A stretch of DNA of 43,173 nt from a virus. Taxonomy: Duplodnaviria > Heunggongvirae > Uroviricota > Caudoviricetes. The translations under genes were made by a program, and so were the position numbers. Shown in pieces: positions 35,081 through 35,882 of the stretch. A model generated the notes under the pieces. That model had not been told where the DNA came from. It searched no databases and worked only from the letters and a program-made list of their open reading frames with translations. Each line of letters starts with the position of its first letter. The first letter of the stretch is position 1. Where the stretch lies: the IMG/VR virus record IMGVR_UViG_2844449076_000006, one strand, 5' to 3'.

Positions 35081-35458
35081 ATGACCAACAAAGAAAACAA
35101 AGATAAATATATTAACAAGTTCAAGAAAGAGCTTTCAAAATATATACAACCAACTGCTGGAGTGGACATTCAATTATTTAACTCTAAGGATGGTGGTGGT
35201 GTAATTAAAGCCACTTTGAATAGAAGTGGAAAAAGAAAATCATCTATTGCTGGTAATTTTACTAAATTAGGTGAGGCAATTACCTCGAGTGGGCAGAGGG
35301 TTTTTGGTGGTGATCTATCAAATGTGAATTTTTACGGAACAAATACGATTTTTGATGGAGATACAATATTTTTAATTAAATCACCTGATTCAGAGGAGTG
35401 GTCATCACAAAAAGCTTCCAAAGACGTAGAGGGCATCGTATTTGGAGGGAAAAAATGA
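35081..35458 (+). CDS. Hypothetical soluble protein in an AT-rich cargo cassette; no family recognised
   Basis: 125-aa ORF, Lys/Asn/Gly-rich (MTNKENKDKYINKFKKELSKYIQPTAGVDIQLFNSKDGGGVIK…); GC content visibly far below flanking phage DNA; divergent from ybcN. Confidence 0.5.
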   Translation: MTNKENKDKYINKFKKELSKYIQPTAGVDIQLFNSKDGGGVIKATLNRSGKRKSSIAGNFTKLGEAITSSGQRVFGGDLSNVNFYGTNTIFDGDTIFLIKSPDSEEWSSQKASKDVEGIVFGGKK

Positions 35459-35540
35459 TTAACATTACTACTAAGGATGCACTCAAGTCAGTGGTGAAGT
35501 AAGAGATCTAGTAATTCTTCTTGAAACTGATGGAAAAACG

Positions 35541-35882
35541 GTGTCTGATTATTTGCAGCCAATCCCTCCCAAAAAAGATACACACTGGAGCATGATTTTC
35601 ATTCCGGTAGCAATTTATATACTACTTAATCTTGTATACATTATTGCTCACCCATTATTTCCTGAAAAATATCTAAAAACATCAACATCTATATTTCTAT
35701 TCATTTCCTTCATATTAAGTGCAATAGTAGCATATTTTGTTTTCCATAAGCATAAATCTGCCACTCTATCCATATGCAGCTTAGTGTTCTTAGTGTTAAT
35801 TGTAGGTGCTAACGTAGGGTTTATCAGTTACAGCGACCTAACACAAAAAGCGACGCAAAAATTAGATAGTTTGTCTAAATAA
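35541..35882 (+). CDS. Hypothetical small integral membrane protein (about 3 predicted TM helices), paired with upstream ORF
   Basis: 113-aa ORF with GTG start; hydrophobic stretches WSMIFIPVAIYILLNLVYIIAHPLF, IFLFISFILSAIVAYFVF, ICSLVFLVLIVGANVGFI; same strand and 82 bp downstream of the 125-aa ORF. Confidence 0.5.
   Translation: MSDYLQPIPPKKDTHWSMIFIPVAIYILLNLVYIIAHPLFPEKYLKTSTSIFLFISFILSAIVAYFVFHKHKSATLSICSLVFLVLIVGANVGFISYSDLTQKATQKLDSLSK

Follow-up and report, generated by a model that had tools for sequence, protein, structure and literature searches.

A frameshifted copy of a conserved, mobile two-gene prophage cassette with a possible role in phage defence or exclusion

What is the AT-rich pair of small genes that lies at the broken edge of a lambdoid prophage, and is it still a working unit there? 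The locus in question occupies positions 35,081 to 35,882 of a 43,173-nucleotide stretch of DNA (IMG/VR virus record IMGVR_UViG_2844449076_000006, Caudoviricetes), the whole of which is called the window in this study. An earlier model-made reading of the letters, here the sequence-only reading, had described a low-GC cassette of two co-oriented genes, a soluble protein of 125 amino acids (aa) followed by a 113-aa membrane protein with three transmembrane (TM) segments, and had likened it to toxin/immunity pairs and to superinfection-exclusion or abortive-infection modules. We observed that the locus derives by decay from a two-gene prophage 'moron' that is conserved and moves horizontally; its genes are called A and B. 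The cassette has a GC content of 34.4%, as against 51.8% in the whole window and 53.7% in the neighbouring ybcN-rusA block, and in sliding windows the values are 0.31-0.38 across the cassette and 0.50-0.58 on both sides of it. Both listed open reading frames (ORFs), the second of them initiated at GTG, lie on the plus strand (Table 1), and the description of a low-GC two-gene cassette therefore holds.

The conservation of the pair was evident from the enterobacterial prophages. A 1046-bp segment recurred, at an identity of 99% or more, at one chromosomal site each in 46 of the 5426 complete E. coli genomes. RefSeq lists two hypothetical proteins there, WP_000182282.1 with 125 aa and WP_000608370.1 with 142 aa, and the ATG of the second gene overlaps the stop codon of the first; the gene A product of the window is identical to WP_000182282.1. 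The pair is also found in Klebsiella and Enterobacter prophages. In every enterobacterial locus examined, A and B were direct neighbours that overlap by 1-4 nt and run antisense to the surrounding early-right operon; the loci comprised those of E. coli A7 and CV839-06, seven other assemblies and 17 contigs from IMG/VR, and the proteins measured 122-125 aa (A) and 142 aa (B). The two genes are a real AT-rich accessory cassette of lambdoid prophages, as the sequence-only reading had supposed, and they occur obligately as a pair. The slot and orientation were constant, always between the replication module and ninB/DUF1367, and the flanks were mosaic, with at least four types of module on the replication side (lambda O/P; a DnaB-type helicase; an IstB/DnaC-like loader; O plus DUF6475) and either NinB or DUF1367-NinE on the other. 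Close homologues of A (67-100% identity) and of B (59-99%, on the same contigs as A) were confined to E. coli/Shigella, Enterobacter and Klebsiella. The ratio of nonsynonymous to synonymous substitution rates (dN/dS) was about 0.08 for gene A and 0.08-0.13 for both genes, with saturated dS, and judging from these values both genes are under purifying selection. PHROGs already clusters the two proteins, as phrog_18061 (A, E = 9.3e-85 over 1-125 of 125) and phrog_16940 (B), with the function annotated as unknown.

In the window itself, the second gene of the pair is broken. The native ATG of gene B at position 35455 overlaps the stop codon of gene A (ATGA) and follows a strong Shine-Dalgarno sequence, GGAGGG. 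In the alignment with E. coli A7, one G was missing at about position 35478 (GATGGC to GATGC), a deletion that splits the 142-aa gene; the frame that follows the deletion stops at 35500-35502, yielding a 15-aa product. Of the 113-aa three-TM protein described earlier, the three TM segments thus stand, and the gene as such does not, since in the A7 alignment it is the remnant of gene B. This remnant matches positions 30-142 of 142 in phrog_16940 (E = 2.2e-74) and holds the three TM helices, predicted from hydropathy and from the structure model, with an HKHKS loop, and the 29 N-terminal residues that it has lost (MINITTKDGTQVSGEVRDLVILLETDGKTVSDYLQP) form the most conserved part of the protein in an alignment of 16 homologues. 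The same 15-aa product and the same frameshift were detected in one IMG/VR prophage contig (L033), and at least 100 Shigella sonnei contigs bear an annotation of precisely the 113-aa product. We conclude that the window comes from the S. sonnei lineage, in which the mutation is fixed; a sequencing error was ruled out as the cause of the frameshift, as the truncated product recurs on the S. sonnei contigs. The window copy of B is a frameshifted pseudogene with its conserved N-terminus lost, and judging from this lesion the cassette copy in the window is probably inactive.

This was not the only damaged copy found. In an Enterobacter-type cassette from IMG/VR (L041, 5375-5810), a second, independent 1-bp deletion (GTAGCCTAT to GTAG-CTAT) cuts B to 73 aa and leaves A intact. 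The opposite case is E. coli CV839-06 (L002, 6132-7711), in which the insertion sequence (IS) IS1 lies within gene A after about 50 codons and B is intact.

The intact B protein of 142 aa comprises a conserved N-terminal domain of about 36 aa and three predicted TM helices, with a basic loop between TM2 and TM3, and its lysine and arginine counts point to a cytoplasmic N-terminal domain. The AlphaFold2 (AF2) model of B, with a predicted local distance difference test (pLDDT) score of 72.8, displays three long helices after a small beta-beta-alpha unit of low confidence, and its comparison with BFVD gave only weak helical-bundle matches and a few weak holin matches, none of them informative. 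The A family is marked by the motif F-x-G-T-N-x4-[ED]-x-N-x-I-x-L-I-K-[DG]...W...A-x-x-D-V, and the model of A is laid out as alpha-beta-beta, a poorly defined stretch at residues 48-84, and beta-beta-alpha. The predicted structures speak neither for nor against any functional assignment.

How far the pair extends beyond the enterobacteria was assessed by a profile search with A against 1.84 billion cluster representatives (E <= 1e-3), which recovered 111 distant proteins, nearly all of them full-length matches of 120-135 aa. The loci of distant members, drawn from metagenomes and GTDB, include those of Desulfocapsaceae, Pseudomonas, Glaciimonas, Oleispira, two Photobacterium, Microbulbifer and "Ca. 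Aadella", and the scorable ones come from Gamma-, Beta- and Deltaproteobacteria. In all 15 loci analysed by script, an ORF follows A directly, either overlapping it or at most 3 nt away; one of these ORFs ends at the contig end after its first hydrophobic segment and was left unscored. Among the 14 scorable loci, 13 carry a B-like ORF of 125-156 aa, whose N-terminal 35-60 aa are soluble and which has three hydrophobic segments and a conserved basic loop, [RK]-F-[KN]-N, that reads HKHKS in the enterics; an N-terminal signature, (I/V)-(K/R)-D ... D/S-Y-(L/F/I), is common to the more closely related B copies. The A/B junctions overlap in 11 of the 13, and loci with more similar A proteins also tend to have more similar B proteins (correlation of pairwise identities, Pearson r = 0.93, Spearman 0.67). 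The exception (L017) is from Microbulbifer, whose A is partnered by a 1-TM coiled-coil protein and not by a 3-TM protein. A further arrangement was observed in the 447-aa protein P0104 (L019/L020, 246-1589), where a full-length A domain (7-119) is fused to an HNH nuclease (191-231; Pfam E = 1e-12) and followed by a C-terminal part of about 200 aa without an assigned domain; the contigs concerned are too short to reveal neighbouring genes. The 1251-aa cadherin-repeat protein P0130 was rejected as an A-domain fusion, being a spurious repeat match, and a scan of IMG/VR with the distant A sub-alignment gave no confirmed match.

With reference to their surroundings, the distant pairs were found in prophages and islands and, in several instances, next to defence genes. 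The Desulfocapsaceae pair belongs to a Mu-like prophage with GemA and terminase and comes immediately behind the gene for an AbiJ_NTD4/DUF7014 protein, itself a match to the PADLOC candidate PDC-S32; one Photobacterium pair is found in another Mu-like prophage, with S24 repressor, MuA and MuB, at the end close to the repressor. The second Photobacterium pair is near a Zot gene of the filamentous-phage type and a PLD-like/PDC-S69 protein, and the Pseudomonas pair lies in a prophage beside a DUF2514 (Rz-like) gene. The Glaciimonas pair (L024, 7202-11031) has a complete, convergent Gabija system directly downstream (PADLOC GajA 2e-283, GajB 2e-207) and umuDC with an SRAP gene upstream. The Microbulbifer yueqingensis copy (L017, 5175-5822; L018, 13271-13756) belongs to an island that apparently splits a Mg-chelatase/ComM-like gene and that carries two serine recombinases, an SNase and a DUF4062 protein, and the metagenomic pairs adjoin PIN and DUF4160/DUF2442 genes or are near a gene of the Xre-MbcA antitoxin family. 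Comparatively, the pair was AT-richer than its own locus in seven of eight loci. These contexts, together with the AT-richness, are typical of mobile conflict systems, and as such are suggestive.

The likeness to exclusion modules drawn by the sequence-only reading stands as regards the pairing and the occurrence of the pair in other prophages and beside known defence systems, a check that this reading had itself proposed, and its functional part continues to be read from architecture and neighbourhood, with no homology or structural match behind it. On these grounds we consider it possible, at somewhat less than even chances, that A and B form a defence or exclusion module resembling RexAB. 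More tentatively, and with appreciable doubt, we propose that they represent an undescribed anti-phage family borne by prophages and islands, in which A would be a portable sensor or switch wired to different effectors (mostly the 3-TM protein, in one case the 1-TM coiled-coil protein and in another the fused HNH nuclease), and in which the nin slot of lambdoid phages would serve as a hotspot for defence genes in reverse orientation. Each a single observation, the HNH fusion and the 1-TM partner would fit such a pattern of one sensor with several effectors.

A possible course of action can be outlined for this module. Because transcription from pR must cross the cassette in antisense to reach ninB, the lysogen would express the module, and in lytic growth antisense transcription would suppress it. 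In the lysogen, A may act as a cytoplasmic sensor or regulator that keeps B inactive through the cytoplasmic N-terminal domain of B; infection by another phage would then release or activate B, which could perturb the inner membrane, as in abortive infection of the RexA/RexB type, or block the entry of the phage. The decay of B on two occasions with A intact, by independent 1-bp deletions, one in the lineage of S. sonnei and the other in an Enterobacter-type prophage from IMG/VR, fits B as the costly or toxic partner.

The nearest parallel is RexA/RexB of phage lambda, which is likewise prophage-borne and has a soluble gene first and a gene for a small polytopic inner-membrane protein second; A and B would presumably share its expression in the lysogen, and its logic of sensor and membrane effector resembles the one proposed here. 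However, the two are not homologous. RexA has about 279 aa against the 125 of A, RexB has four TM helices against the three predicted for B, and RexAB is co-transcribed with cI in the immunity region, whereas A and B are situated in the nin region, antisense to pR. In line with this, hmmscan against Pfam-A did not assign A or B to the RexA/RexB families, and in all intact prophages the pair is several kb from the repressor and not in the immunity region. The type V toxin-antitoxin system GhoS/GhoT also consists of a small soluble alpha/beta gene followed by a small membrane gene in one operon, but GhoT has 57 aa and two TM helices, in contrast to the 142 aa, three TM helices and N-terminal domain of B, and A bears no sign of being an RNase. 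The interchangeable TM and nuclease effectors of CBASS, Pycsar, the 2TM effectors of retrons and Kiwa KwaA/KwaB recall the association of A with 3-TM, 1-TM and HNH partners, and A and B were found beside Gabija and AbiJ-like genes; in contrast to these systems, they have no cyclase, reverse transcriptase or other signalling enzyme. The two PHROGs clusters are sequence clusters of prophage proteins that contain A and B and carry no annotation, pairing or function; the module is of the prophage-borne kind made of one small soluble and one small membrane protein.

Several observations weigh against a defence or exclusion function. Sequence searches of A and B in Pfam, NCBIfam, PADLOC and the PDB gave no usable match, which agrees with the sequence-only reading in that neither protein belongs to a described family in these resources. 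In particular, hmmscan against Pfam-A (E <= 1) returned no family for A and sub-threshold generic TM matches for B; 71 diverged members of the A family had no relevant Pfam match and, against PADLOC, three isolated matches at E >= 0.002 that were taken as chance; A and B themselves had no match in PADLOC v2, PDC candidates included; and the A profile found nothing significant in the PDB. The structure model of A, built from nine close sequences, reached a pLDDT of 58.5 and a predicted TM-score (pTM) of 0.61 only, and fold searches with it returned non-specific matches. Neither DNA nor protein searches of the GenBank phage collection found a match, and no cultured phage in that collection carries the pair. 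The defence-neighbourhood examples come from about 15 loci without a background rate for comparison, and the HNH fusion is a single protein on two near-identical metagenomic contigs of 1.7 kb. With regard to the putative expression in the lysogen, the -10 region of the cassette was not picked up by a consensus promoter scan and is weak by that measure, and AT-rich cargo in E. coli and Shigella is often silenced by H-NS. Finally, the IS1 insertion in A of CV839-06, with B intact, is awkward for the notion that A neutralises a toxic B, unless the insertion is polar on B. A literature search for the WP accessions and PHROG identifiers found no mention of them in the papers covered, and the DefensePredictor supplements do not contain them.

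The main rival to a defence or exclusion module is a toxin-antitoxin (TA) or addiction system, in which B would be a membrane toxin and A its protein antitoxin or regulator, the pair stabilising the prophage or island; we regard this as unlikely, yet worth serious attention. The order of the genes is that of ghoS-ghoT, with the soluble protein first and the membrane toxin second, and the translational coupling and small sizes agree with it, as does the patchy spread on mobile elements beside the TA genes PIN, DUF4160/DUF2442 and Xre-MbcA. The two independent frameshifts of B with A intact show the order of decay that is expected if the toxin is lost first. On the other hand, neither protein is similar to toxin or antitoxin families in Pfam, NCBIfam or PADLOC, and CV839-06 tolerates the interruption of A with B intact, again unless the insertion is polar. 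Moreover, the distinction is partly semantic, as many TA modules act as abortive-infection systems, and a TA role is therefore hard to tell from abortive infection.

The remaining two explanations are less well supported. One is lysogenic conversion or superinfection exclusion without killing, in which B would alter the envelope or block DNA injection in the manner of SieA, Imm, Cor or HK97 gp15, and A would be an assembly factor or chaperone. B is predicted to be a small polytopic inner-membrane protein, the location is mostly prophage, and the antisense orientation to the lytic operon is the layout of the iss gene in this prophage family; the bor gene of lambda is likewise arranged antisense to the lytic operon. 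Nevertheless, the known injection blockers tend to be encoded by one gene, the pair is also present, next to Gabija, outside prophages, and the HNH fusion and the 1-TM partner suggest that A is a regulatory module with different effectors rather than a dedicated chaperone. We regard this explanation as rather improbable. The other is a function that benefits the phage in the lytic cycle and plays no part in phage-phage conflict; the pair would be an accessory holin/antiholin, or it would modulate replication or recombination. B resembles class I holins in its three TM helices and in the charged tail at its C-terminus; it had the few weak holin matches in BFVD noted above, and the cassette lies in the nin region amid genes of DNA metabolism. 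Against this, the pair runs antisense to all lytic operons, with a putative -10 region of its own, the host prophages carry complete lysis cassettes with their own holin, endolysin and spanin genes elsewhere, outside of which the pair is found, copies also reside in non-phage islands, and no holin family in Pfam matched A or B. We consider a lytic function very improbable.

If the defence or exclusion reading is true, the pair would constitute a compact family of sensor and membrane effector, about 0.87 kb in length, in the prophages of uropathogenic E. coli (UPEC), probiotic E. coli, Klebsiella and Enterobacter, hosts which matter for phage therapy. It would also flag the junction of replication genes and ninB in lambdoid phages as a cargo slot worth mining, and the apparent effector switching of the A domain, if true, would provide a handle for finding further systems. 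The S. sonnei copy itself is another case of prophage decay driven by IS elements and frameshifts.

The boundaries of the unit were recognised by comparison of diverged cassettes, which have a -10-like hexamer in common at the 5' side and a hairpin at the 3' side. The putative promoter has a weak -35 element, but a hexamer, TATAGT preceded by TGA, is kept at the same place in the diverged Klebsiella/Enterobacter-type cassettes, and the sequence farther upstream of it is unrelated between them. This region may be the promoter of the cassette itself. The stem of the hairpin 3' of B is longer in the Klebsiella-type copies (CCATGCCATGCG...CGCATGGCATGG), and the flanks past it differ; the cassette probably has its 3' end here, where the hairpin would end or stabilise the transcript. 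The terminator-like stem-loop on the opposite strand is presumably in the place where lambda has tR2.

The slot contains further cargo in a prophage of the assembly GCA_030132385.1 (L003, 5665-7348 and 9118-10971). There the A-B pair is adjoined by a 377-aa protein with a weak match to Pfam Colicin and a 174-aa protein with a weak match to Colicin_im, and the interval from the cassette to the replication genes contains DndB-like and HNH genes. This additional cargo suggests that the nin-region slot is a general hotspot for cargo.

With regard to the surroundings of the cassette in the window, the nin region of the early-right operon opens with the ybcN/NinB gene, which diverges from gene A at a distance of 264 bp, and continues with ninE, ybcO and rusA. 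At the opposite end of the cassette, homology to the intact prophage of E. coli A7 breaks off at 35990, where only 30 nt of gene P are left and IS1 begins. The placement of the cassette given by the sequence-only reading, divergent to ybcN, just ahead of the IS1/IS21 insertion and at the truncated edge of the prophage, where intact relatives run on into P/O and the immunity genes, was borne out by the coordinates together with the Pfam, NCBIfam and blastn matches. Beyond IS1 there is a gene for an oligosaccharide transporter of the major facilitator superfamily (MFS) at 39025-40272 in place of prophage DNA, from which it follows that the half for replication, immunity and integration is missing here. 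The IS1 junction of the window was common to none of the complete E. coli genomes.

Table 1. Position and evidence of the features at and around the A-B cassette in the window
Feature	Position	Strand	Details and evidence
Gene A, intact, 125-aa soluble protein	35081-35458	+	ORF; WP_000182282.1 in E. coli; phrog_18061
Gene B, 5' remnant	35455-35502	+	native ATG, 8 native codons, 1-bp deletion at ~35478, premature TAA; A7 alignment
Gene B, 3' remnant ('113-aa' ORF)	35541-35882	+	codons 30-142 of 142-aa WP_000608370.1; phrog_16940
Putative promoter -10 region (TGTATACT)	35037-35044	+	-10 TATACT at 35039-35044, ~36 nt 5' of gene A
Hairpin GCCATGC-N7-GCATGGC	35890-35910		directly 3' of gene B; conserved in diverged cassettes
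Terminator-like stem-loop	35936-35954	-	early-right operon strand, between the end of P and the cassette; consensus scan
ybcN/NinB-family gene	34361-34816	-	Pfam NinB, phrog_72; 'YbcN family protein' in E. coli annotation
Last 30 nt of replication gene P	35961-35990	-	homology with intact prophages ends here
IS1 truncating the prophage	35990-38891	+	sequence, blastn
IS21-family element inside IS1	~36221-38350		istA 36322-37494, istB 37491-38291; NCBIfam IS21 transposase and IstB

The insertion of the IS21-family element into IS1 is accompanied by an apparent 4-bp duplication of ATAT, after which IS1 resumes and ends at 38891. A second copy of IS1 was located at 30514-31281, between the lysis genes and a porin gene, and an ORF for the IS2 transposase (NCBIfam IS2 TnpB) lies further upstream at 26458-27363; the prophage is rich in IS elements, as expected for Shigella.
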